DNA of 50,369 nucleotides from a virus (taxonomy: Duplodnaviria > Caudoviricetes). A program made the position numbers and the translations under genes. Positions 656 through 22,197 of this stretch are shown piece after piece. How positions within the stretch are numbered: the first letter of the stretch is position 1; every line of letters begins with the position of its first letter. Location of the stretch: the IMG/VR virus record IMGVR_UViG_3300031576_000066, positions 1 through 50,369 of that record, one strand, 5' to 3'. Below the pieces are notes generated by a model. It saw only the letters and a list, made by a program, of their open reading frames with translations. It made no database searches and was not told the origin of the DNA.

Positions 656-1219
656 ATGGCAAAGAAGCTAGAAACCAACCTCCTCTCACAGGTGGGGCAG
701 TTAGAGGGGGCTAATCCGGCCCTCGCCAAAGCCGGCCCAAAGAAGGGAGTCAAGAGCAAATCTTGGGACGAAGACCCCCAAATCCTTGCCCGCCTTGAGT
801 CCGTTGCTCAGATGATGCTCCGCCACGCTCGCCTGTGGCAGATTGCCGGAGTCTTCGGCTACGCCATCTCGACCGCCCGCAAGGACCGCGAGCGCGTCAA
901 AGAACTCTGGGCGCGTGAAGCCGCCGGCGCTGTAAACGCGCACCGCCAGCAAAGCATCGCCCAATTCCGTCACGTCCAGCAGGCGGCTTGGGCGGAGTGG
1001 GACAAGCACAAAGACCCGCAACTCCTGCGCATCGTCGGCGACCGCGAGCGCGACATCGTAGCTCTGCAAGGCACAGAGAGGCCGGTAGCCCAAGACATCA
1101 ACCTACACACTGACAATGACCGACCGCTTGAACACCTTTCCGACGCGGAACTCGCGGCACTCGAAGGCACGACGCCGGGACCTAAAGGCCGCAATAAAAA
1201 AGGAGATGATCAGGCGTGA
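656..1219 (+). CDS. terS: terminase small subunit
   Basis: HTH-like segment (LWQIAGVFGYAISTARKD), C-terminal LSDAELAAL, directly upstream of terL. Confidence 0.7.
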   Translation: MAKKLETNLLSQVGQLEGANPALAKAGPKKGVKSKSWDEDPQILARLESVAQMMLRHARLWQIAGVFGYAISTARKDRERVKELWAREAAGAVNAHRQQSIAQFRHVQQAAWAEWDKHKDPQLLRIVGDRERDIVALQGTERPVAQDINLHTDNDRPLEHLSDAELAALEGTTPGPKGRNKKGDDQA

Positions 1220-2672
1220 GTGGGCACGCCGCAAGCTCATCCGCTTCTGCCAGTTCTGCGATCCTTTATACGACGACGCCGACCACCTAAAGCTACTCGC
1301 GGACAAACTCCACGAGGTTGAGCGGTATGTAGAGTCGGGCGGGGCCGAGGGCATTGGGCGGCTGATCGTCAACATGCCGCCCAGGCATGGCAAGTCTGAA
1401 ACCGGCTCGAAGCGCTGGCCGGCCTTCTTGCTGGGGCGGCATCCGAAGTGGCATATCGGACTCATCGCCTACAACGATGGGTTTGCCGGTGACTTCAGCC
1501 GGGCCAACCGGGAACTCATCGCCAATAGTGATGAGTACCGGTTGCTCTTTCCCAAAATAAAACTGCACCCGGCCTCGCAAGCAGTGGAGAGATGGGCGCT
1601 CGCCGGCGGCGACCTGGACGATCCCAGTGTGGTCGCCACCGGCATAGGCGGCGCGCTGACCGGTCGCGGCTTCGAGATCATCATCATTGACGACCCGGTG
1701 AAGAACCGGGCCGAGGCCGAGTCGCCGACCTACCGCAAGAACCTGCACGACGCCTACAAGGGCACCATCCGCACGCGGCTGGAACCGGGCGGCGCAATCG
1801 TCATCATCTGCACCCGCTGGCACGAGGACGACCTGCCAGGTTGGCTGTTGGAGCAGGAGAGTCTGGGCGACGGCGAGCACTTCGAGACGATCAACATCCC
1901 GGCCCTCGCTGAGCCGGGCGACATGATGGGCCGCAAGCTGGGTGAGGCGCTATGGACCAAGCGCTTCGGGCGCAAGGACCTGCTCCTCACCAAAATGGCG
2001 CTCGGCTCGTATGAGTGGGAGGCGCAATACCAGGGCCATCCCAAGCCGCCTGAAGGTGGCAAGATACGGCGCGAATGGTTCCAGGTCATCGACGCCGACG
2101 AGATGCCGGCGCGCTTCAAGCCTGGACCGGACGGTGAGCCGCCTGCTGAGCGTTTGCAGTGGTACAGGTATTGGGACCTGGCGGCGACCGCCAAGACCAC
2201 CAGCAATCACACCGCGGCGGCGCGGGTTGCGTTTGACAGTGACGGCTATCTCTACATCGCTGACATGGTGCGCGGGCGCTGGGAGTGGCCGGAGCAAAAG
2301 AAGCAAATCAAGGCAACGATGAAGTCAGAGAAAGCGCTCGGCGTCAAGCACGGAGTAGAGTCAGCGCTTCACGGCACCTCGGCGGTCCAAGAGTTTATGA
2401 CCGACAAGGAACTCCACAACGTTGCTTTTGAAGGTGTGGACGTTCACGTAGACAAGCTCACCCGCGCTCTGCCGTGGATAGGCAGAGCAGAAGCCGGAAA
2501 AGTCATCCTGATCGCCGGCGTGTGGGTGGGTGCTTTTCTGGACGAGGCCGCGAACTTCACCGGCCACAACGATAAAGACGACGACCAGATCGACACGATT
2601 AGCGGAGGCGTGGCGATGTCTGAGCAAAAGCCAAAGAAACTCCGCAAGTCATCTAACCCGTTCTACGGGTAG
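1116..2672 (+). CDS. terL: terminase large subunit (Terminase_6 type; start could be 1206)
   Basis: Walker A NMPPRHGKS, Walker B IIIIDDP, coupling motif CTRW, nuclease YWDLA and DDQIDT. Confidence 0.95.
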   Translation: MTDRLNTFPTRNSRHSKARRRDLKAAIKKEMIRREWARRKLIRFCQFCDPLYDDADHLKLLADKLHEVERYVESGGAEGIGRLIVNMPPRHGKSETGSKRWPAFLLGRHPKWHIGLIAYNDGFAGDFSRANRELIANSDEYRLLFPKIKLHPASQAVERWALAGGDLDDPSVVATGIGGALTGRGFEIIIIDDPVKNRAEAESPTYRKNLHDAYKGTIRTRLEPGGAIVIICTRWHEDDLPGWLLEQESLGDGEHFETINIPALAEPGDMMGRKLGEALWTKRFGRKDLLLTKMALGSYEWEAQYQGHPKPPEGGKIRREWFQVIDADEMPARFKPGPDGEPPAERLQWYRYWDLAATAKTTSNHTAAARVAFDSDGYLYIADMVRGRWEWPEQKKQIKATMKSEKALGVKHGVESALHGTSAVQEFMTDKELHNVAFEGVDVHVDKLTRALPWIGRAEAGKVILIAGVWVGAFLDEAANFTGHNDKDDDQIDTISGGVAMSEQKPKKLRKSSNPFYG

Positions 2673-2680: not shown

Positions 2681-4252
2681 ATGCTATCTGCATCCGACAC
2701 TTCAAACCCAACGCCTGCACCCGCAGTCGCTCAAGGTCTTTTCGCCATCCTCAACGCGCGCATCGACGATCCCGACTTCCAAAAGGAACGCAAAGACCGC
2801 GCGGCCATGATCAAAGCCGCCCAGGATTACTATGATGGCCTGCACCCGCAGTCGCTCAAGGTACGCCCAAACGACAAAGACCCGAATGTAATCATCAACC
2901 TGTGCCGGCGGATCATCAATAACTCCGTGGCCTGGCTGTTCGGGGATGTGGAAAGCGGCGAGATTATAAAGATGGAACTCGAAGAGGGTGAGCGGCAGGA
3001 GCAGAAGGCCAACCCCGCCGAAGAGTCCAATGCGCCAGACGAACCGCCCGCCGAGTCAACTGAGCCAGAGATCGACCCTGGCGAGGAATGGCTCAAACAG
3101 GTCTGGGAGGCCAACGGCGGCGCACTCCTTCTACAGAAGCTCGGGCGGCGCGGGAGCATCAGCGGACACGGCTTTATGAAAGTCCTGCCCGCGACCGACC
3201 TGAGCAATGATCTGGGTGTGCCGCGTTTGGTGCTGCTCAAAAGCGCTATGGTCAGCGTACTGACCAAAGAGGACGACTCGGACACTGCCGAGGCTTTCGT
3301 GATTGAGTGGACAGAGAAGCGCATGGTGGGCGCGAGCAACCGCTTGCGCGACGTGAGAGTCCGCCAGATCATCACCCAGATCGGCGTTCAATGGGTGATA
3401 GCCCAATTCGCTGACACCGGGCGCGGGCGAGATAAGTGGCAGATTGAGTCAGGGCCAGAACTCTGGCCCTATAGCTGGTGCCCCATCGTGGACTGGCAGA
3501 ACCTTCCCAACGATGACTCGTACTATGGCCTCAGCGACTTGGAGGACTTGCCCACGATCAACAACGCGATCAACTTCACGGTGAGCAATGTCAACCGCAT
3601 CCTGTTCCTCCATGGCCACCCGCGCACGGTGGGCACCGGCTTTGAGGCCAGTGAAGTTCAAGACACCGCGATTGATTCCTTCTGGACCATCCCAGACGAA
3701 AAGGCCAAAGTCACCAACCTTGAGATGCAGAGCGACCTCGGCTCGGCCTTCGCCTTCCTGCAATTCCTAACCCAGCAGTTTTCCAACATCGGGCGCGATC
3801 TGGACGTGGCGAGCCTGGCCGACAAGATCGGGCAGATCACCAACTACGGCCTGCACGTGCTGGCCGACGCGGCGCTCAAGAAGCTGGGCGAGAAGCGCCT
3901 CAACTACGGGCGCGCCATCATCCAGATCAACCGTATCTTTCTGGAACTCGGCGGCTTCCCGGTCCAAGACACCAAGCTGCATTGGCAGCATCCGCTGCCC
4001 GAGGACGCTCTCGAAGAGGTCAAACGCCTGAAGGACGAGCGCGAGATGGGGATCGTGTCCAAGGAAAGCGCTGCCGAGGAGCGGGGCCGCAACTGGCAGA
4101 CTGAGAAGGACCGCATCGAAAGCGAACAGGCTAACGATGGAAATGCAGGTGAGATGATGCTCAGGGCCTTCGAGCGCGGCGCCGGCGCCCAGCCCTTCCG
4201 GCCCAACCCGGCACTGAGACAACCAGCGGCACCGCCGCAGAATGGAGCCTGA
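2681..4252 (+). CDS. portal protein (SPP1 gp6-like)
   Basis: 523 aa after terL with GGAGG RBS; DYYDG, N.CRRII, CPIV..N...G.SDLE motifs. Confidence 0.85.
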   Translation: MLSASDTSNPTPAPAVAQGLFAILNARIDDPDFQKERKDRAAMIKAAQDYYDGLHPQSLKVRPNDKDPNVIINLCRRIINNSVAWLFGDVESGEIIKMELEEGERQEQKANPAEESNAPDEPPAESTEPEIDPGEEWLKQVWEANGGALLLQKLGRRGSISGHGFMKVLPATDLSNDLGVPRLVLLKSAMVSVLTKEDDSDTAEAFVIEWTEKRMVGASNRLRDVRVRQIITQIGVQWVIAQFADTGRGRDKWQIESGPELWPYSWCPIVDWQNLPNDDSYYGLSDLEDLPTINNAINFTVSNVNRILFLHGHPRTVGTGFEASEVQDTAIDSFWTIPDEKAKVTNLEMQSDLGSAFAFLQFLTQQFSNIGRDLDVASLADKIGQITNYGLHVLADAALKKLGEKRLNYGRAIIQINRIFLELGGFPVQDTKLHWQHPLPEDALEEVKRLKDEREMGIVSKESAAEERGRNWQTEKDRIESEQANDGNAGEMMLRAFERGAGAQPFRPNPALRQPAAPPQNGA

Positions 4253-5409: not shown

Positions 5410-5745
5410 ATGACAGCCAAGATCACCACACCCACCGACCTGATCGCGCCGCGCATCGTCTCGCTGAAGGAATTGCGCGATAAACTTCTGCCGAAGGTGG
5501 GGGGATGGAGTTGGGCTGAGGATGCGCTCGTGGACCTGTGGAAACTCGGCTCGCCCGATCCCCAGCATAGCATGTGCCCGCAGGTGGCCGAGAAAAGCGG
5601 CCCACCTTGCCCCATGCGCGAATGCCCGCACGTCAAGCGCCTGCTCATGCCCAGGCAGTTTCAGCAATGGTGGTCCGAAGTCCAGCAGCGCCAGGGCTGG
5701 GAGATGACAGCCGCACAGGCGCTCACCAAGAAGAGGCCAAAATGA
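5410..5745 (+). CDS. hypothetical protein
   Basis: GGGAG RBS, tightly packed, ATGA overlap with the next gene. Confidence 0.6.
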   Translation: MTAKITTPTDLIAPRIVSLKELRDKLLPKVGGWSWAEDALVDLWKLGSPDPQHSMCPQVAEKSGPPCPMRECPHVKRLLMPRQFQQWWSEVQQRQGWEMTAAQALTKKRPK

Positions 5746-6173
5746 AAGTCACCGTCAAGGGCGAAACAACCAATGAACCGTTGAATGAATCGTTTTCAGT
5801 CTGGGCGGGCGACGAGATCAAGATAACTACTGAGTCGGGCCAGTGGTTTACTCTCGACCTTGAGCCAGACATCTGGTTTGAGCACTTTTACCTTTTGCTA
5901 GCCAGAGCCAAAACATGGCGCGAGCGCTGGCATAGCGTCTCTCTTATTCTCAGTCGGGAGGAAACTATGGTGGAGACGACGCTCATTGACTGCCCGGTGT
6001 GCGGGCAAAAGGGCCTGCCTTCGGTTCACCTGCCAATGTGTACCGCTTGCGCGAATTTTCAGAGGCTGATTTTGCATACTACCGTTTACCGGATGGAAAC
6101 CATGAGCATGGGTGAACGCCTGAAACTCACATGGAGTCGGGTAGTCTCTTTATTCACCGGAAAGCATGGCTGA
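5742..6173 (+). CDS. hypothetical protein with a CxxC...CxxC zinc ribbon
   Basis: CPVC...CTAC; coupled to both neighbours. Confidence 0.55.
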   Translation: MKVTVKGETTNEPLNESFSVWAGDEIKITTESGQWFTLDLEPDIWFEHFYLLLARAKTWRERWHSVSLILSREETMVETTLIDCPVCGQKGLPSVHLPMCTACANFQRLILHTTVYRMETMSMGERLKLTWSRVVSLFTGKHG

Positions 6174-7224
6174 ACAGCCGCCAGTCCTCGAATCCGTCAA
6201 TCACTTTCGCGCCGCGCTTCTGCGCGAGGAGCGGGCTGCTGCCATGCGCTTGGTGCGGGCGTATGGCTCTGCTTACCAGAAGTTGCAGGGTGATATTGCC
6301 GCTCTCGAAGCCACAATCGCCGCCCTGCCTGAACCCACCTGGGGGCAGGTGGAGCGGCTATCGATCTATCGCCAACTCCAAGCGCAGATCGCCGAACAGA
6401 TCAACCGCTACGGCGTCATCGCTGAGAACGAAGTACAGCAGGGCACACTAGACTCCATCGCCCGCGCGCTGGCCGACTCTGAGCAGATGGTCCAGATGTC
6501 GCTGCCAGGCCTGCCGGCGGCCACCGTAAGAGGCCTGCTTGTGCATCTCAACCCTGACGCCGTGCTCACCATGATGGGCTTTTTAGAGTCGGACAGCCCG
6601 CTCTACACCAACCTTCGAACGCTCGGCGACTCAGTCGCTGACTTGGTGGCCGATAAGCTGAGAGAAGGGATCATCCTCGGCTATAACCCGCGCAAAGTTG
6701 CTCGGCTCATCCGGCAGGCGACTGGCCAGGGCCTGAGCTGGAGCCTGAACACCGCGCGCACCGCCAACCTGTGGGCCTATCGGCTGGCCTCACATGCGAA
6801 CTATCAGGCCAACCCGCATGTGATCAAGGGTTGGGTATGGTACGCGGAATTGGGAGACGTAAGGACGTGTTTAAGTTGCATTTCTCAGCATGGCTCTGAG
6901 CACACCCTAGACGAGGTGCTGAACGACCACCATGCAGGGAGGTGTTCTCCGATTCCAAGAACCTTCACCTACGCCGAACTCGGCTTCAATGTGCCAGAGG
7001 AGCCAGCCACCTACCAGCGGGGCGAGGAGTATTTCCGTGGCCTGAGCGCTCAGGAGCAACGCGACCGCATGGGGCACGCGATGTATTCAGCTTGGAAGTC
7101 GGGCGCTATCTCCTTCAGCGATCTCAGCCAGAGCTACACCGATCCGGTGTATGGCGAGATGCTGCGGGAGGCATCGCTAAAAGGGATACTCGGTGAGCGC
7201 GCAACCCAATTCTACAAACGGTAG
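6166..7224 (+). CDS. minor head/head morphogenesis protein (SPP1 gp7 / Mu gpF-like)
   Basis: C-terminal W.W....D.RTC..C...HG...DH..GRC motif; ARTA.. segment. Confidence 0.85.
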   Translation: MAEQPPVLESVNHFRAALLREERAAAMRLVRAYGSAYQKLQGDIAALEATIAALPEPTWGQVERLSIYRQLQAQIAEQINRYGVIAENEVQQGTLDSIARALADSEQMVQMSLPGLPAATVRGLLVHLNPDAVLTMMGFLESDSPLYTNLRTLGDSVADLVADKLREGIILGYNPRKVARLIRQATGQGLSWSLNTARTANLWAYRLASHANYQANPHVIKGWVWYAELGDVRTCLSCISQHGSEHTLDEVLNDHHAGRCSPIPRTFTYAELGFNVPEEPATYQRGEEYFRGLSAQEQRDRMGHAMYSAWKSGAISFSDLSQSYTDPVYGEMLREASLKGILGERATQFYKR

Positions 7225-7423
7225 GAAACTGGTCATGGTCGAGGTGTCAACCGCCGAGTGGAACCTGATCCGCCGTTTGCGGCGCTTGACAACTGGCAGA
7301 CATCTCCTTACAATAGATAAATCTCGCGCCGGTGTGGACGCGCTTTCTGTGATGGGCAGTGGGAATGTGGAGCACCTGGAGCAATTGCCTCTGCCTGCGC
7401 CCGAAGCTGGCGCTGAGTGTTGA
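7193..7423 (+). CDS. small hypothetical protein (helix plus beta-hairpin; start may be 7235)
   Basis: ORF track; fills the gap ahead of a structured intergenic region. Confidence 0.5.
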   Translation: MSAQPNSTNGRKLVMVEVSTAEWNLIRRLRRLTTGRHLLTIDKSRAGVDALSVMGSGNVEHLEQLPLPAPEAGAEC

Positions 7424-7571
7424 GCTATACGAACATTTTTTCATGCAGTAAAGGTCGCCGTCAAGTAGGGCGGCGAGCATCGCAGGCTAGGCGCGCAAGT
7501 GTCTGGCACGGCGAGCCGGAGCAAAGTCAGTAAGTGTAACCGGCGGCAGGTGAGATATTTTGAATAGACGA

Positions 7572-7651
7572 GAGGCGGCGGGTAACAGGTCCTAATCCCA
7601 CTCAAACCGTAAATTCGGACACAGCCGCCGGTTCGACTCCGGGCCGTCTCG
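7572..7651 (+). ncRNA. tRNA-like element (non-canonical D and anticodon arms)
   Basis: 7-bp acceptor stem GAGGCGG/CCGTCTC; T arm CCGG-TTCGACT-CCGG; 80 nt long. Confidence 0.45.
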
Positions 7652-7720
7652 TCTGGCTAACAACTGAATATCGTGGCGCGTAACAGCGCAACGGACCCCA
7701 GAAACTCTAACAGGAGACAC

Positions 7721-7758
7721 ACAGGGCCACCGACTTTGATCGGTGGCCCTGTTTTTTT
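7721..7758 (+). terminator. intrinsic terminator
   Basis: Perfect 13-bp stem ACAGGGCCACCGA/TCGGTGGCCCTGT followed by T7. Confidence 0.85.
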
Positions 7759-7762
7759 GTTT

Positions 7763-8218
7763 ATGGACAGCGTACAGCGCAGGCAAGTAGCCGAGGCCTT
7801 CACCAGAACCATCAACCTGAGCGCGGATCGTGTGCTCGAAGTCTCGGACCAAATCCAGGATCGCGCCAATGCGCGGCCTGATCTCACCGTGCTCTGCAAG
7901 TTTGATCGAAGTATGCAGGTGAGACGGCTCAAGAACATCTCGCCGCGCAACTGGAATCCAAGCGACTGGAACAACGCCAGCGCCATCCTTGACCAGATCG
8001 CGGCCTTGAAAACCAGCACGCGCCAAGTCGAGAACATTCTCGCCCTCGCCGTGTTGGGGGTTGAGTCGGATGGACTCAAGGACGCTCTCAAATTCCTGAG
8101 CGAAGCCTATGCAGAGCCTGAACTCGTTGAAATTGCGGCGCCCGTCGCCGCTCCAAAACCTACGCTACCTGAGCGGCAATCAGGGAAGGGAAACAATTCA
8201 AATGGCAGACGCAACTGA
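7763..8218 (+). CDS. hypothetical protein
   Basis: In-frame ATG of ORF 7673..8218 just after the terminator; overlaps the scaffold start. Confidence 0.55.
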   Translation: MDSVQRRQVAEAFTRTINLSADRVLEVSDQIQDRANARPDLTVLCKFDRSMQVRRLKNISPRNWNPSDWNNASAILDQIAALKTSTRQVENILALAVLGVESDGLKDALKFLSEAYAEPELVEIAAPVAAPKPTLPERQSGKGNNSNGRRN

Positions 8219-8930
8219 CCCGAACGAAAAGAAAGACCCGGCCGATCCGAAGCCTGGCGATCCACCCGCTAAGAAACCGCCTCAATCCCCAACGGCAGGG
8301 GACCCAGACGCCGGTAAACCCGAGGCGACTTTCACGCAGGCGGATCTGGACCGCATCGCTGGCACCGCGCGCAAAGACGGCAAGAGCGCCGAGCGCGCTG
8401 CGCTTTTGCAGGCTCTGGGCGTAGACAGCCTTGAGGCCGCACAAGTCGCCATCAAGGCCGCAGACGATGCCAAGCGTGCGCAGATGTCCGAATCTGAAAG
8501 GCTCAAGACAGACAAAGAGGCCGCGGAAAAACGGGCCACAGACGCGGAAGCCGCCCGCCAGCGCTCTGACGCCGAACGGCTACAGGCGCTGATGGAGTCG
8601 GAGATCGTCTCTCTGGCTTCGTCCGATCAAGAGTGGGGCCGCTTCGCCAATCCCAAGGCCGTTGTCAAGCTGATCGAAACCAAAGCGATCAAGTTTGAGG
8701 ATGGGCAGTGGGTTGGAGTCGAGGCCGCCCTCAAAAATCTCGCCGAGAAAGAGACATGGACGCTCGCCCCGAAGGGCGGAGGCACTCAGACCAACATCGG
8801 AATCACCAACGGCAAGAAGACAGTCGGTGCCCGCACCGACGATGACCGCCGCGCTGAGTATTTTGGCGGCGGCAAACGCCGGACATTCTTTGAGCCATCC
8901 CCGGATGGCGTTCGTGGTCGAGAAAAGTAA
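8202..8930 (+). CDS. capsid scaffolding protein
   Basis: Pro/Asp-rich N-terminus, TFTQADLDRI motif and coiled coil; directly before the major capsid gene. Confidence 0.8.
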   Translation: MADATDPNEKKDPADPKPGDPPAKKPPQSPTAGDPDAGKPEATFTQADLDRIAGTARKDGKSAERAALLQALGVDSLEAAQVAIKAADDAKRAQMSESERLKTDKEAAEKRATDAEAARQRSDAERLQALMESEIVSLASSDQEWGRFANPKAVVKLIETKAIKFEDGQWVGVEAALKNLAEKETWTLAPKGGGTQTNIGITNGKKTVGARTDDDRRAEYFGGGKRRTFFEPSPDGVRGREK

Positions 8931-8948
8931 CCGACCGTAATCCCCGCT

Positions 8949-8971
8949 CCTTTGCGCCACAGGCGCAAAGG
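8949..8971 (+). promoter_or_regulatory. hairpin upstream of the major capsid RBS
   Basis: CCTTTGCGCC-ACA-GGCGCAAAGG perfect 10-bp stem, no U-tract, followed by AAGGAGGT. Confidence 0.5.
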
Positions 8972-8996
8972 TCAGGAGATAAGGAGGTAAGACCCA

Positions 8997-9845
8997 ATGG
9001 CTATTACCACTGTCGCCAGCCTCAACAGCCTCTTCAATCTGATCTACGAAGACGCGCTGTTTGTGGCTCGCGAAACCAACCTGATGACGGCCTTGGTGCG
9101 GAACTTCAGCGCCAAGGGCTGGATGGCGCGCAAGCTGTCCATCCGCCCGCAGATCACGGCTCAGGCTAAGGCGGAGGGCATTGACTTCGCCAACCCCACC
9201 ACGTTTGGCTTGACCGAGAAAGCCACGCTCACGCCCGCAACGATCATGGCGCAAGTCCTGCTCACAGATGAGGACGTGGATACCGATCCCAATGCCGCCG
9301 TGCAGGACGCCTCTCAGGAACTCGGTGGCTCCATCGCCACCAAGATCGACAAAGACTTGGTAGGGGACTTCACCAGCTTCACCACGGACGTGGGTCCGGG
9401 CGCCGCACAGACCGCCACGATTGCGAAAGCCGCCAAGGGTGTGAGCGTGCTCCGCAACTCGCTGGCGCCGAACCCGCTCTACGTGGTTTGGCATCCCTAC
9501 CACTGGCACGACCTCTGGGTTGAGCTGGGCCAGCCAGCGGCGAACTTTGCCCTGCTGGGTGACATCGCCAACCAGGCGCTCAAAGATTTCTTCGTAGGTG
9601 TCTGGATCAACATCCAGCACTTCACGAGCGCCAACATCATCCCCGATGCCGGCGATGATGCCGTTTCCGGCATCTTCAACACCAACGCTCTGGGATTCGA
9701 CTCCCGCAAGGCTCCCACGATGGAAGATGAGCGCGATGCTTCCCGCCTGGCGACCGAGTTGAACATGAGCGCGGGTTATGCGCACGGCGTTCTTCGCACT
9801 GAGTTTGGTGTGAAGTACACCGCCGACGCCGCGACACCCACGTAA
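8997..9845 (+). CDS. major capsid protein (HK97 fold)
   Basis: AAGGAGGT RBS; ELGGSIATKIDKDL spine helix; VVWHPYHW; follows the scaffold. Confidence 0.85.
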   Translation: MAITTVASLNSLFNLIYEDALFVARETNLMTALVRNFSAKGWMARKLSIRPQITAQAKAEGIDFANPTTFGLTEKATLTPATIMAQVLLTDEDVDTDPNAAVQDASQELGGSIATKIDKDLVGDFTSFTTDVGPGAAQTATIAKAAKGVSVLRNSLAPNPLYVVWHPYHWHDLWVELGQPAANFALLGDIANQALKDFFVGVWINIQHFTSANIIPDAGDDAVSGIFNTNALGFDSRKAPTMEDERDASRLATELNMSAGYAHGVLRTEFGVKYTADAATPT

Positions 9846-9876
9846 GCAAGGGCTGACACCCAAAGGAGAAATTGAC

Positions 9877-10284
9877 ATGAGCGTTTTGAGTGGACGCCCC
9901 TTCCCGATAGCGATCCAGATCACCGACCCCGGCGCGGACATGCGCATCCCGCTTTTGCGCGTGCCTACAGGACACACCTACACGGTTGAGCGTTGCGACA
10001 TCGTTCCTGATACGACCGCCGCCGCCTCCACTGCCAACTATTGGGAGGCCGCGTTGGAAAACGCCGGCGTCTCAGGCACGGCGCAAGCCGTGATCAGCGG
10101 AACGGCAGGCGGCACGGCAGGCTGGGTGCTCAACACGCCGCAGAATGTCACCATCACCGCAGGCTCTGGCGACCTGACCGAAGGGCAGTACCTGAACCTC
10201 AAGTACAACGAGGAAGGCACCATCGCCCCAGGCCGTTTCACCGTGTTCCTTGAGGTCGTGGACGGCATCGGTTCCAAGGCGTAA
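9877..10284 (+). CDS. putative capsid decoration/cement protein
   Basis: AAGGAG RBS; small beta-rich protein directly after the major capsid gene. Confidence 0.5.
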   Translation: MSVLSGRPFPIAIQITDPGADMRIPLLRVPTGHTYTVERCDIVPDTTAAASTANYWEAALENAGVSGTAQAVISGTAGGTAGWVLNTPQNVTITAGSGDLTEGQYLNLKYNEEGTIAPGRFTVFLEVVDGIGSKA

Positions 10285-10318
10285 GAGAGCTGGTACAGGC
10301 TCAAGCCTGATAGACAGC

Positions 10319-10428
10319 AGGGCGGGGGTGAACCCCGAACGGGCAATGCTGCGCGACTCCCGGCGCGCACGCATCCCCCGCCCTTCAAACACCAAAGCCG
10401 GGAGAGCCACCGGGAGGGGCTTCAGGCA
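10319..10428 (+). promoter_or_regulatory. structured 5' leader (three-way junction with possible pseudoknot over the RBS)
   Basis: AGGGCGGGGG/CCCCCGCCCT stem; loop CTCCCGG is complementary to two downstream CCGGGAG copies. Confidence 0.5.
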
Positions 10429-11610
10429 ATGCGTATCCTACTTTACTCAAATCCGATCTGGGGGAAAACAGGTTATAGCTCAGCAGCTAAACACCTGCTC
10501 ACGCACCTTAACAACTTAGGTCACGAAGTGGCTATGTTCGTCAACTACGGACTCAAGGGTGGCGCTATCAGTGCCGATGGAATGGTGTTTTACCCGACCT
10601 ACATTGATGTCTGGGGAAACGACCTCATGCAGGCCCACGCCAATGACTTCCGCGCCGATCTGATCATCACGATCTATGACGCCTGGCCGCTCAAGTTCGA
10701 GAAGTTCACCACGCCCACCGCGGCCTGGGCGCCGATTGACCACCAGCCGGCGCCTGACGATGTGCTCAAGGCTCTGACGCACGCCAACTGGCCGATCTCG
10801 TTCAGCGAGTTTGGGCAGGGCGAACTTGTGAAAGCCGGCCTGAAGGATGCACGCTTCATCCCGCTAGGCGTGGATTGTGAAGTCTACAAGCCTCTCCCGC
10901 AGGCAGAAGCTCGCGACCGGCTGGGACTGCCTCAAGGCAAATTCATCGTGGGAATGGTGGGGACCAACGTCACCTACCCCACGCGCAAGTGCATCCCGCA
11001 AGTGCTGGCGGCCTTCCAGCGTTTCAACGAGTGCTACCCGGACTCTCTGCTCTATCTGCACACCGAGGAAACAGGGCAACAGGGCAAGGGCATCAAAGTA
11101 TCGTCACTGCTCAATAACCTGAACCTTGGGCCGGATAAGGTAAGGCTCTGTGACCAGTATCACAACGCGATTGGCTTTCCAGAGTCGTACATGGTGGACG
11201 TTTACAACGCCATTGACCTGCTCGCACAGCCCAGCATGTCGGAGGGCTTCGGCCTTCCGATTATCGAAGCGCAAGCCTGCGGCACGCTCGTGCTCACCAA
11301 TGATTGCACCTCCATGACCGAACTATTGGCCGGTGGCTGGCTCATCACAGATTACGAGCGCTGGTGGTCCCAGCAAATGGCCTGGCAGGTCATCCCGCAC
11401 GAGAAAGCCATCATCGAGGCCTTCGAGGACGCCTACCGGTTGAAGCACGGCCATGAGCGCGAACCGGACGGCGGCGAATGGACCAAGCGTAAGACGACCG
11501 CACGGCAGTACACGGTTGCCGGCTACGACTTCAAGACGCAGATCGCGCCCAGGTGGACTCAATTTCTGACAGAGATTGAGCCGGAGTTAGCCATCCCTGT
11601 AAAGGCGTAG
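10429..11610 (+). CDS. glycosyltransferase family 4 (GT-B)
   Basis: EGFGLPIIEAQACG (E-x7-E) motif, RK motif, IPLGVD. Confidence 0.92.
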   Translation: MRILLYSNPIWGKTGYSSAAKHLLTHLNNLGHEVAMFVNYGLKGGAISADGMVFYPTYIDVWGNDLMQAHANDFRADLIITIYDAWPLKFEKFTTPTAAWAPIDHQPAPDDVLKALTHANWPISFSEFGQGELVKAGLKDARFIPLGVDCEVYKPLPQAEARDRLGLPQGKFIVGMVGTNVTYPTRKCIPQVLAAFQRFNECYPDSLLYLHTEETGQQGKGIKVSSLLNNLNLGPDKVRLCDQYHNAIGFPESYMVDVYNAIDLLAQPSMSEGFGLPIIEAQACGTLVLTNDCTSMTELLAGGWLITDYERWWSQQMAWQVIPHEKAIIEAFEDAYRLKHGHEREPDGGEWTKRKTTARQYTVAGYDFKTQIAPRWTQFLTEIEPELAIPVKA

Positions 11611-11613
11611 GAC

Positions 11614-12345
11614 ATGCCCACCGAGTTTGAAACACTGCGCGCCCAGGCCGTAGACGGCACACACCTGCCGCTCTCAAAGAACCTGCTTGAGTCATTCCCG
11701 CGCCTGGTGGCCAATCCAGGCATAAGCCCGCGCACAGACCTGCATTACCAGGACTATGACTTACGCGGTGCCATCGCCTGCACCGCCGCTGAGGCCAACA
11801 TTCTCGACCACCTGGCCTTTTACGCTGGTCCGAAGTATGCGGTTGAAATCGGCTCGGCGACCGGCTGGAGCACAGCGCACATCGCGCAATCGTGCAACCT
11901 GGTCTGTATCGACCCGTTCACCGAGGTGAAGCCGCGGATTGACGGACTCAACCCAGCCATGCGCTTTTGGGAAAACATCGAGGCCTGCGGGCTGGATAAC
12001 AAGGTGGAGCTAATCAGACTCCCATCCCCTGAAGCGCTCGACCACCTGAGCGACCAGGTTGATTTTGCCTTCGTGGACGGACATCACGGAGATGGGCAGC
12101 CGCTCAGAGATGCACAGGGGTTGCTCCATCACCTGACCGATCATGCTCTGGTGGTCTGGCACGACTCTGAGCTAAGGGATGTTAGGGAGGCCATCACCTT
12201 CATGCAACGCGATGGATGGGTTTCGCGCGGACTCCTTACTTCCAATTGGCTGGTCGTCATGTGGCGCAGGGGCAGACAACCGGACTGGTGGGAGATGGTC
12301 GTAAAACTCGTGAACGGCAAGGGCCTCTTGATGGAGGCTCCATGA
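11614..12345 (+). CDS. class I SAM methyltransferase (Methyltransf_24-like)
   Basis: VEIGSATGWST, CIDPF, DFAFVDGHH, VVWHD. Confidence 0.85.
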   Translation: MPTEFETLRAQAVDGTHLPLSKNLLESFPRLVANPGISPRTDLHYQDYDLRGAIACTAAEANILDHLAFYAGPKYAVEIGSATGWSTAHIAQSCNLVCIDPFTEVKPRIDGLNPAMRFWENIEACGLDNKVELIRLPSPEALDHLSDQVDFAFVDGHHGDGQPLRDAQGLLHHLTDHALVVWHDSELRDVREAITFMQRDGWVSRGLLTSNWLVVMWRRGRQPDWWEMVVKLVNGKGLLMEAP

Positions 12346-13028
12346 AGATCGTCGCCTGCATCACCACACGCAACGAGGCGCGCTCAATTGGCTTGCTGGT
12401 GGGAAAGCTGATCGCTGGCGACTTTGACGCCGTGCTCGTCGTTGACGACGCCAGCACCGACGGCACCGCCGAGATAGCGAAGAACGATGGGGCGATGGTA
12501 TTCAATAACAAGCGGCGGCTGGGCATGGCGGCAAGCATCCTGCTTGGCTGGCGTTTGGCGCTATCGCTGGATGCTGGACTCGTTTTGCAGATTGACGCGG
12601 GCGGTTCGCACAACCCGGTGGACGCCTGGAAGTTTATCTCGCCCGGCTTCGCCCAGCCTGCCGATCTGGTCATCGGCTCGCGCTTTTGCAAGGGGGCGCG
12701 GTACGTGGGTCGGTCTTGGCGGGCAGTGATGAGCAGGGCGGCGGCGGTCGCCTGCAATTTGGCCCAGCCTGGCGCGCGCTGGTCAGACTGGACATCGGGA
12801 TACCGGGCCTACTCCGCGCTGGCATTACGGGTATTGACGGAGAGGGCCTACCGGAGTCGGATGCACGGCTTCCAGATTGAGACGCTGGCGAGGGCAGGCG
12901 CGGCGGGCTTGAGCATCACAGAAGTGCCCATCACCTACACCGCCGGCGAGTCGGCCTTCAACAGTCAGATCGCCGCCGAGTGTTTTAGAGCCTGGTGGGA
13001 TGTGATGCGCGCCAGACTGGAAAGATAA
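12342..13028 (+). CDS. glycosyltransferase family 2 (polyprenol-phosphate mannose synthase-like)
   Basis: T.NEA, VVDDASTDGT, QIDAGGSH, DLVIGSRF, DWTSGYRAY. Confidence 0.9.
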   Translation: MKIVACITTRNEARSIGLLVGKLIAGDFDAVLVVDDASTDGTAEIAKNDGAMVFNNKRRLGMAASILLGWRLALSLDAGLVLQIDAGGSHNPVDAWKFISPGFAQPADLVIGSRFCKGARYVGRSWRAVMSRAAAVACNLAQPGARWSDWTSGYRAYSALALRVLTERAYRSRMHGFQIETLARAGAAGLSITEVPITYTAGESAFNSQIAAECFRAWWDVMRARLER

Positions 13029-13032
13029 CGAG

Positions 13033-13752
13033 ATGAGGATCGCGCTTGGCTCAATCTTCCGCAATTCAACCGGCTCACTGGAGCGCTATTTCAGGCAGGT
13101 CGAAGCGTTGGCGGTGCAACTGAGAAGCCGGGGCGACACGCTCAGGCTGATTCTGGCCGAGGGGGACAGCATAGACGGCACGTATGACGAACTGCATTAC
13201 CACCTGGACTCGCGGGAGGGAGCGATCAACATGCACGACAGCAAGTTGATCCAGGTCAACCACGGCGGGCCGGTCTTTGGCAGTGTGAACGATGAGCAGA
13301 GGTGGCGGAACATCTCCAAGGTCTGCAACGACCTGCTCGATCTGGTGACGCCGCAGGATGACATCCTGATCTATGTGGAGAGTGACCTGATCTGGCAGCC
13401 CGTCAGCATGACGGCCCTGATCGACTTGGCCGAACTCTCGCGCTTCGATGTCGTCGTTCCCATGTGCCTGGCAGAGGGCACTGACCGCTTCTATGACATC
13501 TGGGGACACCGGCGCAGGGGTCTGGGCTTCCGGCCAGAACCGCCCTATCACCCGGACCTTGAGTTGCACAGGGGATACACGGCCCTGGGGATGGATAGCG
13601 CGGGCAGTTGCTTGGTGATGAAAGGGCACGTCGCGCTCAACACGCGCTTTGACCCGCCCGAGCACGGCATTGTGGGCTGGTGTGAGGACATCCGCCGCAA
13701 GGGTTACAGCATCTGGCTCCAGCCAGCGGTGAAGGTCGAGCACCCGATATAG
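13033..13752 (+). CDS. GT-A fold glycosyltransferase (Anp1/GT2-like)
   Basis: EGDSIDGT, YVESDL, FYDIWG, DSAGSCLVM and C-terminal V.H. Confidence 0.7.
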   Translation: MRIALGSIFRNSTGSLERYFRQVEALAVQLRSRGDTLRLILAEGDSIDGTYDELHYHLDSREGAINMHDSKLIQVNHGGPVFGSVNDEQRWRNISKVCNDLLDLVTPQDDILIYVESDLIWQPVSMTALIDLAELSRFDVVVPMCLAEGTDRFYDIWGHRRRGLGFRPEPPYHPDLELHRGYTALGMDSAGSCLVMKGHVALNTRFDPPEHGIVGWCEDIRRKGYSIWLQPAVKVEHPI

Positions 13753-13760
13753 GAGGCAGT

Positions 13761-13943
13761 ATGGCAGAGCAAGCCAAAGCACCGCGCAAGTACATCCTCA
13801 TCAAAGGCGAGGAAACCGTCGAAGTTCTGGAGGGGCGCGAGGGGCGGCGCGACCAACTGATTCAGTACGGCTACGAGTGGACCAACAAGGCGGAGTTTGA
13901 GCCGACCGATAAACCCGCGCCAACTCGGTCGGATAAGAAGTAG
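13761..13943 (+). CDS. small hypothetical protein
   Basis: AGGAGG RBS, operon packing. Confidence 0.55.
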   Translation: MAEQAKAPRKYILIKGEETVEVLEGREGRRDQLIQYGYEWTNKAEFEPTDKPAPTRSDKK

Positions 13944-13967
13944 CACTGTTGTGGGGTGATGATCTAA

Positions 13968-14546
13968 ATGGCGATTCATTGGTATCTGCTCCCGTTCGAT
14001 AGTGCCACCAGCTCTCCCAAGCATCTGGAGCCGCCGGAGAATGGCGACCGCTGGGATAGCAAGCGTTATTTTCACGGCGACGCGGCCAGCTATGTGGCGC
14101 TGGTCAAAGCGGACATCAGCGATGTGCGCCACGCGCTGATTGCGGCGGATGTAGAGTGTGTGGTGCTTCCCGACCCGGATACCACCGTTCTGCCGGGTCA
14201 ACTCACAGTCATTCAAAACGTTCTCGAAGCACGGCATATACCGTCCGGCTGGGTCGCGGCGGGAATGACATTCCGACAAGTCTATCGGCGGGTTGCGTTG
14301 ATGGGTATCCTGTGGATGCGCTTTCGTGGCCGCACGCTGGGAGCTAATGTTTTTGGCGGCGGGGTGACGCTGGAGACGGCTGTCGCCAGCTTGCCAGTCA
14401 ATGTGCGCCAATCGTTAGCCGACATCGCGGATGAGTTTCAGATCGACCGCGCCGGCGTGGTGACGGTACGCGATGCGCTCGCGGCCTGGTATCAGTCGCC
14501 GGTCATTCAGGCTATGCCGATCATGATCTTGGGGGAGAGTCTGTAA
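13968..14546 (+). CDS. hypothetical protein (accessory structural block)
   Basis: ORF track; TAATG coupling to the next gene. Confidence 0.6.
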   Translation: MAIHWYLLPFDSATSSPKHLEPPENGDRWDSKRYFHGDAASYVALVKADISDVRHALIAADVECVVLPDPDTTVLPGQLTVIQNVLEARHIPSGWVAAGMTFRQVYRRVALMGILWMRFRGRTLGANVFGGGVTLETAVASLPVNVRQSLADIADEFQIDRAGVVTVRDALAAWYQSPVIQAMPIMILGESL

Positions 14547-15358
14547 TGCCCTTCCCAACGCTCGGAATCCTGGACGCCTTCACCCGCGCCGATCAAGACC
14601 CGGATACCGGAGCGTTGTGGGGCGGCGGGGTTGAAACAGCGGGCATCGGGCATCGTATCCTGAGCAATCAGGCGGCGCGCACGGCGGGATCGAATTTCGG
14701 TTCACGGACGGCCTCGATCTATGGCCCGAATTGCGAAGCCTACGTTTCTATTCCCACGTTTCCAGTTCTCACCGGCGATCTCGTTCGCCTTGTTTGCAGA
14801 ACGCAGGAGGTGGGCGGATTCAATTGGGATGGCTATGAGGCGCATATCGATGTGAATACGGCCGGCAATGAAACGCTCCGCATCCGGGAAGTTCTTAATC
14901 AGGCTCCCACCACGCTCGCCAGTGATACCACGCGCAACATGGCTTCTGGCGATAAGCTGGGCTTTGAATGTATTGGCACGGCTTTGAAGCTCTATAACGT
15001 CGAGGGCGGCGGGGCCTGGACAGAGCGGGTCAGTACGACCGATGCGACTTACTCTGTTGCAAACTATATGGGGATGATCCTCGTCGAAGCAGTGGCGACC
15101 GCCCGCCTGGACGACTTTGGCGGCGGTGAGCTGTCGCCCACCTATGAGCAGGAAGGCTACCGTTTTCGGAATGACGACGGCAATGAAAGCGCGGCCACCT
15201 GGCTGGCGGCGCAAGATACAAACATTACTCGCGCGGCTTTGATCAACACGCGACTGCGAACGTTGACCGATACGGCGGGCGGCGATCCGCCGTCACGACG
15301 GCTCAAACAGAAGTATCGCAGAGCGGGCGATGACGGCTGGCGCGATCTAAAGGCATAG
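14546..15358 (+). CDS. putative virion protein, concanavalin/lectin-like beta-sandwich
   Basis: DAFTRAD N-terminus, beta-strand pattern ending in ARLDDFGGG. Confidence 0.5.
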   Translation: MPFPTLGILDAFTRADQDPDTGALWGGGVETAGIGHRILSNQAARTAGSNFGSRTASIYGPNCEAYVSIPTFPVLTGDLVRLVCRTQEVGGFNWDGYEAHIDVNTAGNETLRIREVLNQAPTTLASDTTRNMASGDKLGFECIGTALKLYNVEGGGAWTERVSTTDATYSVANYMGMILVEAVATARLDDFGGGELSPTYEQEGYRFRNDDGNESAATWLAAQDTNITRAALINTRLRTLTDTAGGDPPSRRLKQKYRRAGDDGWRDLKA

Positions 15359-15361
15359 ACG

Positions 15362-16339
15362 ATGGCCTGGAAACTCCCCGACAAAGGCGAAGGCGACAAC
15401 GACTTGCAGAGCACACCCTTCCGGGAGTATTTTGATGTGCTCGTGGCGGGCCTCAGTGGTATAGATTGCGTGCTGTCCGGCGGGGTCGTCACGGGCGGGG
15501 CCGATATGACCCCGGCCGTCGCCAAATGCGCGGTGCTGAGTAACGGCACGCTGTTTGCTGTGGCCGCCGCTGATGTGACCATATCAGCGGCGGATGCGAC
15601 CAACCCGCGCCTGGACCTGATTGTAGTGAACTCGTCCGGCGCGTTGGCGGTGCGGGCGGGGACCGCGGCGGCAAACCCCAAACCGCCCGCCCGCACTGCG
15701 AACGATGTAGTGCTGGCGGTGGTCTATGTACCTCCCAATGACACTGCGATTGCGACCACCCAAATTGTCGATATGCGCGTGATGCGTGAGCGCGGTCCGA
15801 TCTGCATCTACAAGACGACCACCGCAGAAGTCACTAATACCACCGCCGCCGCTATCGAAGCCCTGAACAAAGCCAATGCGGGCGTCACGATTCCGAGCGG
15901 TCTATTCCTGGCCGGCCGCATCTTGCGCGTGCGTTTGGGCGGCAACCTATTACTCAACTCTGGCACTTCAACGGTGCGCTTCGCGGTGCTGTACGGCGGC
16001 ACAACGATGTTTTCAGTCATCTCAGGCGCATCTTCTAATAGCGCCAACCGGCGTGCCTGGTGGCTGGATTTTGACCTCACCGCTCAAGGCAATGCTGATC
16101 AGTCGGTTGTGGGGCATGGAGAAGTTCAAGACCCGGCCTTGACGCCGGTAGCTCCCACCAACGGTATCGGGAACCTGTTTAGCGGCACAGGCACGACGGA
16201 AGGGCCAGCGCCGTTCTCTGGTTCAGCGGCGGTTGACTCGGACGCGGCCAATCGCCTTCTGTCGGTGCAGGTCACTTTTTCGGTGAGCAACGCGGCGGTT
16301 GAGTTGGTGGTGGAGTCGGCAACGGTGGAGATCGAATAA
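15362..16339 (+). CDS. putative virion fibre protein
   Basis: AADATNPRLDLIVV...GTAAANPKPP...LAVVYVP module typical of phage fibre proteins. Confidence 0.6.
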   Translation: MAWKLPDKGEGDNDLQSTPFREYFDVLVAGLSGIDCVLSGGVVTGGADMTPAVAKCAVLSNGTLFAVAAADVTISAADATNPRLDLIVVNSSGALAVRAGTAAANPKPPARTANDVVLAVVYVPPNDTAIATTQIVDMRVMRERGPICIYKTTTAEVTNTTAAAIEALNKANAGVTIPSGLFLAGRILRVRLGGNLLLNSGTSTVRFAVLYGGTTMFSVISGASSNSANRRAWWLDFDLTAQGNADQSVVGHGEVQDPALTPVAPTNGIGNLFSGTGTTEGPAPFSGSAAVDSDAANRLLSVQVTFSVSNAAVELVVESATVEIE

Positions 16340-16786
16340 ATGCCAATGTCGGAAGGCCCCGGTTTTTTGTTTGGGAGTCCAAATTCCTTCATGGGTTATG
16401 GCGCTATGGGTGCTCCTGATACGGTAGCGGCCTTCATCCTGTCTGCGAGTGCGAACATTGCGGCGGGGGGTGAAAATACGACCGCTCAATTGACGGCCCC
16501 AGCGAGTGGGACGTTTGGAGGGGGTCGCATTCAGGATGATGAGAATCCAGGGGATGCTGTTGACCCGGCGAGCAATCAATACCGCGAGGATGAGTGGTGT
16601 ATGCAAGCAACAGCGGCGGCGATTGTTGGGGCGGTGTATGAGTTTCGATTGGTCTTTGATAACGAAGACCTGTTTGATACTTACACCGTCACGCCGCAGT
16701 GGACGATTGCGGCAACAGGCAAGGGGATTCCGCCTGGACTCATTCGCCGTCCGAATCGTTCCGAAATAAGGAGAGTCTATGGGTAG
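16340..16786 (+). CDS. putative virion protein
   Basis: Abutting genes; TTAQLT...DENP...EW...YEFR motif. Confidence 0.55.
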   Translation: MPMSEGPGFLFGSPNSFMGYGAMGAPDTVAAFILSASANIAAGGENTTAQLTAPASGTFGGGRIQDDENPGDAVDPASNQYREDEWCMQATAAAIVGAVYEFRLVFDNEDLFDTYTVTPQWTIAATGKGIPPGLIRRPNRSEIRRVYG

Positions 16787-17264
16787 GATATTTGCAATCC
16801 CATTCACCGCTACGGTGACAAATGCAGGCGGAAACGTCGATCTGTGGGAAGTGCTACCGGGAGACGATAAGCCGGTTTTATTGCGCCGCCTGGTGCTAGG
16901 GCAAGTCTCTGAAGTCGGAGACGCCGCCGAGGAGGGCCTGGAGATTCAAATCCTCCGCATGAACGCCACGGTTACAGGCGGGAGCGGCGGCGCGGCGGGT
17001 GCTCCTGAGTGCTTGGGCGAGCATGGCGTTAGCCCTGGCTTTACCTGCGAGACGAACAACACGACCGTTGCAACCACCTCTGGCACGACCGACATCTTAG
17101 ACGAGATCGCTTGGAACAATCGCGGCTCGCCGTGTGAATTTTGGTGGTCGGAGGATAAGTATGCCCCGCGTGTTCAGCAAGGCGAGGGCCTGTTTATTCG
17201 CCAGGCGACCACGGCAGCCGATGATTACACCTTCGCCGGGACGATCTACGTCGAGGAGCTGTAA
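16779..17264 (+). CDS. putative virion protein
   Basis: AAGGAG RBS; Thr/Gly-rich beta protein ending YVEEL. Confidence 0.55.
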   Translation: MGRIFAIPFTATVTNAGGNVDLWEVLPGDDKPVLLRRLVLGQVSEVGDAAEEGLEIQILRMNATVTGGSGGAAGAPECLGEHGVSPGFTCETNNTTVATTSGTTDILDEIAWNNRGSPCEFWWSEDKYAPRVQQGEGLFIRQATTAADDYTFAGTIYVEEL

Positions 17265-17271
17265 CTAAGCG

Positions 17272-18591: not shown

Positions 18592-18592
18592 T

Positions 18593-18892
18593 ATGGCGAG
18601 CGAATACGACAAAGGCGACCAGGTAAGAGTCAGCGCCGCTTTCACCAACGCGGTGGGCACGGCCATTGATCCAACCACCGTCCGATTCAAGTACAAGACA
18701 CCGGCGAGTGGAACGGCTGTCACATTGGTGTATGGCGTCGACGGTGCCTTAGTGAAGGACTCGACCGGCAATTATCACGTTGACATTGATCTCGATCTGG
18801 CAGGCGTGTATCGCTTCCGCTGGGAGAGCGTCGGCACCGGCAAGGCGGCCAGCGAGTCGTTTGTGGTGGTCCGCAACTCGGACTTTGACTAA
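18593..18892 (+). CDS. Ig-like/BppU-N-like adaptor protein
   Basis: YDKGD..., DPTTVRF.Y..P, G.YH.D, GVY..RW pattern. Confidence 0.55.
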   Translation: MASEYDKGDQVRVSAAFTNAVGTAIDPTTVRFKYKTPASGTAVTLVYGVDGALVKDSTGNYHVDIDLDLAGVYRFRWESVGTGKAASESFVVVRNSDFD

Positions 18893-18955
18893 GTAGTTTT
18901 TTTGCGCGGCGCGTCTCCAAAAAAGAGACGCCCCACTCGCGCAAGAGGAGGCAAC

Positions 18956-19968: not shown

Positions 19969-19980
19969 GGCAAGCACAAC

Positions 19981-21716: not shown

Positions 21717-21728
21717 AGAGGAGGCAGC

Positions 21729-22130: not shown

Positions 22131-22197
22131 ACAAACCCTTCATTACCCCAATGAGAGCGCAAGCTGCTTTCATTGGGGTTGGCCGGGAGATGAAAAG

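Follow-up and report, generated by a model that had tools for sequence, protein, structure and literature searches.

The phage genome recorded in IMG/VR as IMGVR_UViG_3300031576_000066 (50,369 bp, completeness rating 100%; the whole stretch was analysed and is called the window here) carries within its head module a cassette in which a small open reading frame (ORF) containing a promoter is followed, on the plus strand, by a structured non-coding segment and an intrinsic terminator (Table 1). Pfam and PHROGs scans place plus-strand genes from 656 to about 32.2 kb, with a right arm on the minus strand. Genes for the terminase, the portal and a MuF-like minor head protein lie upstream of the cassette; past its terminator come an orphan gene, here called gene X, the scaffold and major capsid protein genes, glycosyl- and methyltransferase genes, and then connector, tail, tape-measure and distal tail genes, in all about 24.5 kb of plus-strand genes. 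An initial annotation, made from the sequence alone, had proposed that the small ORF and the RNA form a protein-plus-RNA antitermination switch gating the head-tail operon. Most of the items on which it built are present at their places, and its observation is partly confirmed; it missed the promoter. Because the cassette has a promoter of its own, an arrangement of the type of PR'-tR' of phage lambda, or a stand-alone small-RNA gene, is at least as likely as the protein-plus-RNA switch.

Homologues of the small ORF occur in four more lineages (L036 with its twin L037, L078, L063, and a group of the near-identical L062, L067, L068 and L069), all directly 3' of the MuF-like gene and with 37-44% identity to the window protein. 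Across the five lineages many third-position changes leave the aligned residue unchanged, which argues that the ORF, first described as encoding about 70 amino acids (aa), is truly coding. The conserved core of the protein is an arginine-rich, helix-like stretch followed by G.HL.I and GV, and the invariant residues include three arginines within one short stretch. A profile of the protein retrieved 11 proteins among 5.8 billion, none of them named and none with a Pfam domain, and yielded nothing under E 0.1 among solved structures; the model of the protein stored in the ESM Atlas has a predicted local distance difference test score of 0.42 and gave no usable match. A scan of IMG/VR for the promoter/ORF pattern returned only the six contigs already found.

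The promoter lies within this coding sequence. Sites with 11 of 12 consensus positions and correct spacing number three in the 50-kb window and zero in 40 first-order Markov simulations; besides the cassette promoter, one precedes a leader and the sigma-factor gene at 47974-48588, and one precedes a helix-turn-helix (HTH) repressor-like gene. Because such sites are rare, and because of the positions of the other two, all three are probably real host-type promoters, judging from sequence statistics. In five of five lineages, TTG... and TA.A.T occupy the same codons with a spacing of exactly 17 nt: TTGACA/TACAAT in the window, TTGCCT/TATACT in L036, TTGCAC/TATAAT in L078 and in the L062 group, and TTGCAT/TATAAT in L063. 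The -10 hexamer is coded by the isoleucine codon ATA in all four relatives, where ATA accounts for 3-11% of isoleucine codons, and the -35 hexamer by the leucine codon TTG in all five lineages, where TTG accounts for 7-24% of leucine codons. Because the conserved hexamers use codons that are otherwise rare in these phages, we conclude that the DNA is selected as a promoter while it also codes for protein. With the promoter inside its gene, the full-length small protein could presumably be made only from upstream, that is late, transcripts. Antisense to the small ORF, over its 3' half, the minus strand has a weak promoter-like site (7464-7435; 9/12, with TG) and a weak hairpin (7342-7325). A minus-strand reading of the locus was considered and rejected: by eye it has no counterpart in L036, and the minus strand shows no excess folding.

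At the other end of the cassette, a long hairpin with a 5' ACACAC flank closes the unit right before gene X in the same five lineages. In an alignment of six sequences, 100% of the cells of this hairpin form standard pairs and 9 of its 14 pairs carry changes on both sides; none of 500 shuffles reached this covariation, and sliding the partner by 1-3 columns brought pairing to 33-52%. Full pairing with this many compensatory changes indicates that the terminator hairpin is under selection. The perfect 13-bp stem and T7 run noted before are confirmed, and the window shares a strong U-tract with L078 and the L062 group. The start of gene X lies 5 nt past the T7 run. With a Shine-Dalgarno-like AGGAG just 5' and an ATG just 3' of the hairpin, in L036 as in the window, the arrangement fits a translated read-through mRNA in which the hairpin is folded and may bridge the AGGAG to the gene X start. 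Gene X itself, which has no Pfam domain and no PADLOC match, shares 51-54% identity with its positional counterparts in L002 and L036 and has nine relatives in 5.8 billion proteins, one of which is the window's own 160-aa gene call.

The cassette promoter is the only plus-strand promoter-like site of at least 10/12 in 1-32 kb, and its terminator is the only strong plus-strand terminator in 1-34 kb, where the other plus-strand matches are at chance level. From 7758 to 23472 there is no plus-strand sigma70-like site of at least 9/12; the initial annotation, which named a separate promoter downstream of 7758 as counter-evidence, had likewise seen none past the terminator, but it overlooked the one at 7286-7314. 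Because no other promoter is recognisable in 1-32 kb, the capsid and tail genes must be reached via the terminator. Gating of a head-tail operon, as first proposed, would apply to the about 24.5 kb of capsid and tail genes behind the terminator, for which no promoter is recognisable; it does not extend to the terminase, portal and MuF-like genes, which lie upstream.

In lambda-type phages, the late genes lie behind a gate that consists of the PR' promoter, a short RNA (6S/StxS), the tR' terminator and the antiterminator Q. PR' is described as always active and, during lysogeny, as terminated immediately downstream, so that a short RNA results (PMC7547250). The cassette shares with PR'-tR' a host-type promoter, a strong intrinsic terminator within a few hundred nucleotides (nt), a short terminated RNA as its predicted product, late genes behind, and a gene directly upstream of the promoter. 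It differs in that the lambda gate precedes lysis and terminase genes whereas the cassette sits in the middle of the head module, in that its promoter is inside the upstream gene, in its longer and more structured leader, in the lack of a visible pause element, and in the upstream protein, a 62-aa product that resembles no Q family. The conserved promoter, order of parts and hairpin, together with a variable RNA and the absence of another recognisable promoter, fit a gate of the PR'-tR' type, and a lambda-like gate or leader before the capsid and tail genes is the reading we favour, tentatively and at a little short of an even chance.

Under this gate reading, host RNA polymerase would start at 7286-7314 within the small ORF, transcribe the leader and stop at 7721-7758, giving a short RNA. 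The predicted transcript would begin near 7321 and end near 7758, and would comprise the 3' third of the small ORF (its first ~100 nt), the structured non-coding body and the terminator. The stop would silence gene X and the genes for scaffold, capsid and tail, during lysogeny or early infection for instance, and expression of the ~24.5 kb downstream would need read-through of one terminator, for which the product of the small ORF, made only from upstream-derived transcripts, is a candidate factor.

The body of the RNA is less constant than its ends. The non-coding segment between small ORF and gene X (7424-7762; 339 nt, about 330 having been reported) is unique in the structural region as a long stretch devoid of any evident ORF; most other gaps look coding by eye. 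Its plus strand folds better than shuffles both with the terminator (z -4.27) and without it (z -2.51; 2 of 200 shuffles as good), and the minus strand does not (z -0.13), so that the structure is strand-specific. The TCGCCGTC/GGCGGCGA helix, the GCAA hairpin and the AACAACTGAATA tract of the initial annotation are all present, the two hairpins also in the minimum-free-energy (MFE) fold; GCCGG and CCGGC are able to pair; and TAACAG does occur at 7583, 7681 and 7708, three of nine copies in the window, a total at the level of chance (9.6 expected). The tRNA-like fold fared less well. With default settings ARAGORN finds no tRNA gene in the window or in 20 related loci; at relaxed settings it draws a Tyr(gta)-like cloverleaf with a sound acceptor stem and T-arm, a poor D-arm and anticodon arm, and odd anticodon-loop positions. 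Because the relaxed threshold yields 7 calls per 50-kb window (a slightly looser one, 164 in 650 kb of related loci), the call is weak on its own. A different sub-threshold element, Gly(acc)-like, lies within the homologous RNA unit at 1893-1966 of L063 and overlaps the small ORF at its stop codon; the acceptor stem of this element is a perfect 7 bp, and its T-loop reads TTCGAGA.

Among 115 loci the only relative alignable at the nucleotide level is L036, with its twin L037. A nucleotide search with the region found no match in a phage collection and no second copy in the record itself; in IMG/VR, an exact 30-mer scan gave no match, and a 16-mer scan gave 40, of which only the L036 and L037 contigs are real relatives. 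At the place of the TCGCCGTC/GGCGGCGA helix L036 carries TCGGCGC/GCGCCGA, which in L036 encloses a GAAA-loop hairpin, and the stem shows one double change in a two-sequence consensus fold of window and L036. Window and L036 share identical blocks of 16 and 12 nt, and the GCCGG/CCGGC pairing is invariant between them and thus uninformative for covariation; the tRNA-like element falls in a ~110-nt insertion (about 7548-7658) that L036 lacks. Covariation, which had been proposed as a check, is therefore strong for the terminator hairpin but thin for the body with its single alignable relative: two double changes in the 5' domain, against three in the terminator. Rfam, another suggested check, gave no match at gathering thresholds and chance-level ones at E<=10, the best of which (23.9 bits, for a threshold of 60) is the terminator hairpin read on the minus strand. 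No tandem repeats were found in the RNA, and no motif is common to all lineages save the hairpin and its ACACAC flank. The unrelated L006-type RNAs described below have ACAACTAGAG ahead of their terminator, a resemblance to the AACAACTGAATA tract that may be due to chance.

These features of the body bear on another explanation, an ordinary operon-end terminator accompanied by a decayed tRNA gene or relic, with an RNA body that has no function. The sub-threshold tRNA-like segment with its odd anticodon loop, its absence from the closest alignable relative and the two double changes seen in only two sequences are all as such a relic would have them, and one relative, L097, has a plain terminator-then-promoter boundary at the same place. 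A relic does not, however, account for a promoter conserved against codon usage, for the fixed order of promoter, RNA and terminator in five lineages, for excess folding on one strand only, or for 16- and 12-nt blocks without a single difference from L036, whose flanking proteins are only 44-54% identical, and we regard this explanation as very unlikely.

The layout of the cassette is also seen, with unrelated sequence, in other relatives. Searches with the MuF-like protein gave 16 viral, 16 metagenome and 1 genome loci, the closest being 61% (L002, viral), 58% (metagenome) and 45% (genome) identical, and an alignment search with the capsid protein added 80 viral loci. In L002, where gene X is 51% and the capsid protein 67% identical, a different small ORF occupies the same place; behind it come a promoter with an extended -10, a ~140-nt RNA that is structured (z -6.1), and a 14-bp terminator separated from the ATG by 12 nt. 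A third type of cassette, in L006, L019/L022 and L030, consists of a small ORF, an extended -10 promoter, a long hairpin, a linker and a terminator; the hairpin forms in each although its sequence differs, linker and terminator are conserved, and z ranges from -5.0 to -8.3. L008 and L009 keep the flanking genes of this third type and lack both the small ORF and the RNA unit. A motif scan of IMG/VR for the L006 type found only its own contig. The small ORFs of the three types have no detectable relation to each other, and those of the window, L002, L006, L019 and L030 match no Pfam family at E<=10, PF17362 included. The cassette layout is thus kept through full replacement of its sequence. A type III toxin-antitoxin system was considered and rejected: the RNA has no tandem repeats, gene X has no PADLOC or Pfam match, and the gene that follows the terminator in the L006 type is also present in L008 and L009 without the RNA unit.

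We also took a census of the interval from MuF-like to capsid gene. Both genes are present in 67 loci, and after removal of 13 exact duplicates 54 distinct intervals remained. Of these, ten have a promoter and a hairpin with a T-rich tail, three a hairpin only and 14 a promoter only; the counts come from a script that overlooked the promoters in L002 and L006 and the terminators in L015 and L079, all of which were seen by eye. In L020, L065 and L097, which have no cassette, a consensus promoter and a ~40-nt leader stand directly before the gene that precedes the capsid gene, a placement indicating that sigma70-type promoters drive capsid genes in this phage group; in L097 a terminator stands ahead of the promoter, the usual order. 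The leader shared by these three loci (L020 3015-3095, L065 2854-2935, L097 2044-2125) has GTGCA and TGCAC on either side of the Shine-Dalgarno sequence just before the scaffold start, which could either form a hairpin that masks the ribosome site or serve as an operator. At its 3' end the window RNA (CAGAAAC..CAGGAGA..CACAG, with ATGGAC past the hairpin) loosely resembles this leader, as though insertion of the hairpin had parted the start codon from the leader.

A complete promoter-to-terminator unit among late genes, present in some relatives and absent from others, might also be a stand-alone small-RNA gene. The morons of lambdoid phages are units with their own promoter and terminator between late genes. 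The cassette likewise has its own promoter and terminator, stands among late genes and is variably present in relatives; it differs in having no protein-coding cargo between promoter and terminator, so that it would fit only as an RNA moron, and in an architecture that is kept even where the sequence is replaced. Such an RNA would work in trans, on targets of the host or of the phage; the terminator would do no more than insulate the late genes from a host-driven promoter, and late transcription would pass the terminator by unrelated means. The promoter is host-type, as are the two other strong ones of the phage, before the sigma-factor and repressor-like genes, the structure is strand-specific, and tRNA-like modules acquired in two lineages suggest a stable-RNA platform. 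Against it, no conserved single-stranded seed is seen, and sequence and length (~205-440 nt) drift while promoter and hairpin stay; of four 13-nt antisense matches within the phage, all on the strand opposite to listed genes, none is a convincing target (one, at 8712, is overlapped by an alternative minus-strand ORF, 8580-9977). Capsid expression past the terminator is left unexplained, and in relatives a promoter of this kind serves capsid genes directly. We consider this main rival of the gate possible but doubtful. The two need not exclude each other, by analogy with Stx phages, in which the PR'-tR' transcript is reported to be itself a regulatory small RNA (PMC7547250).

The mechanism first proposed, bipartite antitermination in the style of conAn or of N and nut, would have the small protein bind both leader RNA and polymerase and so confer resistance to the terminator. 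In conAn, as presented in one account, the ConAn1 protein carries the pXO2-34 domain (PF17362), and the conAn2 region, of 260-600 bp, also contains a promoter (PMC8191782). Like conAn of Gram-positive conjugative plasmids, the locus has a small protein gene and then a structured region at the head of a long operon, and at 339 nt, with z of -2.5 to -4.3 on the plus strand only, the region agrees with conAn2 in size and structure. The three invariant arginines, the joint presence or absence of small ORF and RNA unit in the L006 group, and the feed-forward switch that would arise if the protein came only from upstream late transcripts point the same way. However, the small ORF matches neither PF17362 nor DUF2292 nor XtrA, nor any other family, even at E<=10, and no solved structure; the small ORFs of the three cassette types show no kinship; co-occurrence of ORF and promoter is trivial in the window type, where one lies inside the other; only the hairpin and its ACACAC flank are common to all lineages; and there is no further terminator downstream on which a processive system would act. 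Several terminators that are read through inside the downstream operon characterise conAn; here the one strong terminator belongs to the cassette itself, and the carrier is a phage of ~60% G+C, probably of Chloroflexota. What stands of the proposal is a structured RNA and a strong, conserved terminator before the capsid and tail genes; membership in conAn does not, and we think the bipartite mechanism unlikely.

Other antitermination systems resemble the cassette in part. AlpA is small, Q-like and loaded onto DNA. In Pseudomonas aeruginosa it is reported to let polymerase pass the terminators between a promoter and the lysis genes (PMC7969949); the small ORF has no match to Phage_AlpA or an HTH family in Pfam scans, and no binding element was identified. 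HK022 put and the Bacillus EAR are, like the RNA here, structured in cis between promoter and terminator, and are described as much smaller than the 260-600 bp conAn2 region (PMC8191782), whereas the RNA here has ~440 nt, no Rfam family at threshold and a body that is not conserved across lineages. A more general version of the switch, in which an orphan protein of 55-77 aa, with the promoter in its own gene and made only from upstream late transcripts, would act with the leader RNA or with the ACACAC-flanked hairpin to let polymerase through, and in which the sister cassettes would have non-homologous small proteins in the same role, seems to us improbable. If true, it would make the cassette a protein-plus-leader switch that turns upstream late transcription into a feed-forward burst of capsid and tail expression.

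Several observations weigh against the favoured gate. The cassette promoter is not the only late promoter of the phage, as the terminase, portal and MuF-like genes lie upstream of it, and transcripts from there must get past the same terminator. Antiterminator families (Q, AlpA, N, NusG-like) were not found by Pfam and PHROGs scans of chosen ORFs genome-wide, a few short ORFs being omitted. By eye, a -10-like hexamer just past the promoter is seen in L078 only, and the five lineages share no conserved pause-like element, for which no search model exists. The U-tract is interrupted in L036 and L063, so that the stop may be merely leaky and need no factor. No RNA run containing window 6166-9845 was found; only two DNA runs, both of one cave-metagenome sample, contain it, and one of these may be the source. 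The RNA body, alignable between window and L036 only and varying from ~205 to ~440 nt among lineages, is poorly conserved, which fits a leader and proves nothing. Neither promoter nor terminator was detected in 27 of the 54 census intervals. Finally, late transcription may follow other rules, from late promoters that our scans would not see, in a phage that has two sigma-factor genes of its own.

Table 1. Features of the cassette and of genes around it, with positions in the window
Feature	Position	Strand	Basis and remarks
Large terminase gene	1116-2672	+	Pfam/PHROGs
SPP1-type portal gene	2681-4252	+	Pfam/PHROGs; two auxiliary genes next
MuF-like minor head protein gene	6166-7224	+	Pfam Phage_Mu_F, E 2e-6, 29.0 bits
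Small ORF, 62 aa + stop	7235 (ATG)-7423	+	ORF listing; alternative GTG start 7193
Sigma70-type promoter, TTGACA-17-TACAAT	7286-7314	+	11/12 consensus positions; within small ORF
Predicted transcript, ~440 nt	7321-7758	+	Start from -10 position, end from terminator
Helix TCGCCGTC/GGCGGCGA	7455-7476	+	MFE fold
9-bp hairpin, GCAA loop	7486-7507	+	MFE fold; not kept as such in relatives
Best-conserved blocks CACGGCGAGCCGGAGC ... AGTGTAACCGGC	7510-7547	+	GCCGG/CCGGC able to pair
tRNA-like element	7572-7651	+	ARAGORN at relaxed thresholds only
AACAACTGAATA tract	7659-7670	+	L036 has AACAACCTGA at matching place
Shine-Dalgarno-like AGGAG	7712-7716	+	4 nt 5' of hairpin; AGGAG at matching place in L036
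Intrinsic terminator	7721-7762	+	Terminator scan; 13-bp stem and 6-nt loop (7721-7752), then TTTTTTGTTT; T7 to 7758
Gene X (orphan, 151 aa)	7763-8218	+	First gene past terminator
Scaffold gene	8202-8930	+	Pfam and PHROGs matches
Major capsid protein gene	8997-9845	+	Pfam and PHROGs matches
HTH repressor-like gene	32298-32738	-	
Tyrosine integrase gene	33632-34543	+	

The surroundings of the cassette are those of a temperate phage, as the tyrosine integrase and the HTH repressor-like gene indicate. Its host is perhaps a member of the Chloroflexota, because the sole genome relative of the MuF-like protein, at 45% identity, sits on the contig of an Anaerolineae metagenome-assembled genome; the G+C content of the phage is about 60%. 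The Phage_Mu_F score of the MuF-like protein (29.0 bits) is slightly below the curated cut-off of 29.6, and the gene is also matched by several PHROGs head-morphogenesis families. Upstream of it, 5449-5724 encodes a distant copy (28% over 92 aa) of a widespread family of ~100 aa, the same family that comes after the terminator in L006-type cassettes. Between capsid and connector/tail genes, 10429-13028 holds a glycosyltransferase, a methyltransferase and a GtrB-like gene, possibly cargo that modifies the virion or host surface, and 54-nt repeats lie at 17354-18387 in the plus-strand ORF 17272-18591.

The minus-strand right arm encodes a DnaB-like helicase, methylases and two sigma-70-family proteins (42153-42947 and 47974-48588). 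Two copies, 91% identical, of a 44-nt minus-strand terminator (a stem, then TTTTTTGTTTATAC) occur there, at 41291-41334 and 47922-47965, and share a TTTTTTGTTTAT tail with the plus-strand terminator of the cassette at 7752-7764. The copy at 47922-47965 comes directly after the sigma-factor gene 47974-48588, and that at 41291-41334 about 800 nt, including a small ORF, downstream of the sigma-factor gene 42153-42947; a possible -10 (TATACT) after the latter terminator would use its T-run as -35. The 794 nt between gene and terminator (41359-42152) contain only a short minus-strand ORF near their start; small genes may be present in the remainder, or it may not be coding at all. The minus-strand ORF 46953-47885 contains a 24-nt unit repeated in tandem at least 16 times (47008-47531), which gives an 8-residue repeat in the protein.

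To our knowledge, detailed accounts of late genes gated by a promoter-proximal terminator come almost entirely from lambdoid coliphages and a few plasmid and pyocin-like systems. The cassette would place the same gate logic in a temperate phage from the environment, probably one of Chloroflexota, and build it from parts that have no relation to any family described. It stands out for a promoter kept within coding sequence against codon bias, for a layout that outlives its sequence and for its unusual site between the MuF-like and scaffold genes, and at ~480 bp it is compact enough to suit simple reporters. If the gate is regulated, it would represent an antitermination system without a known homologue; if the RNA is the product, a new family of phage small RNAs.

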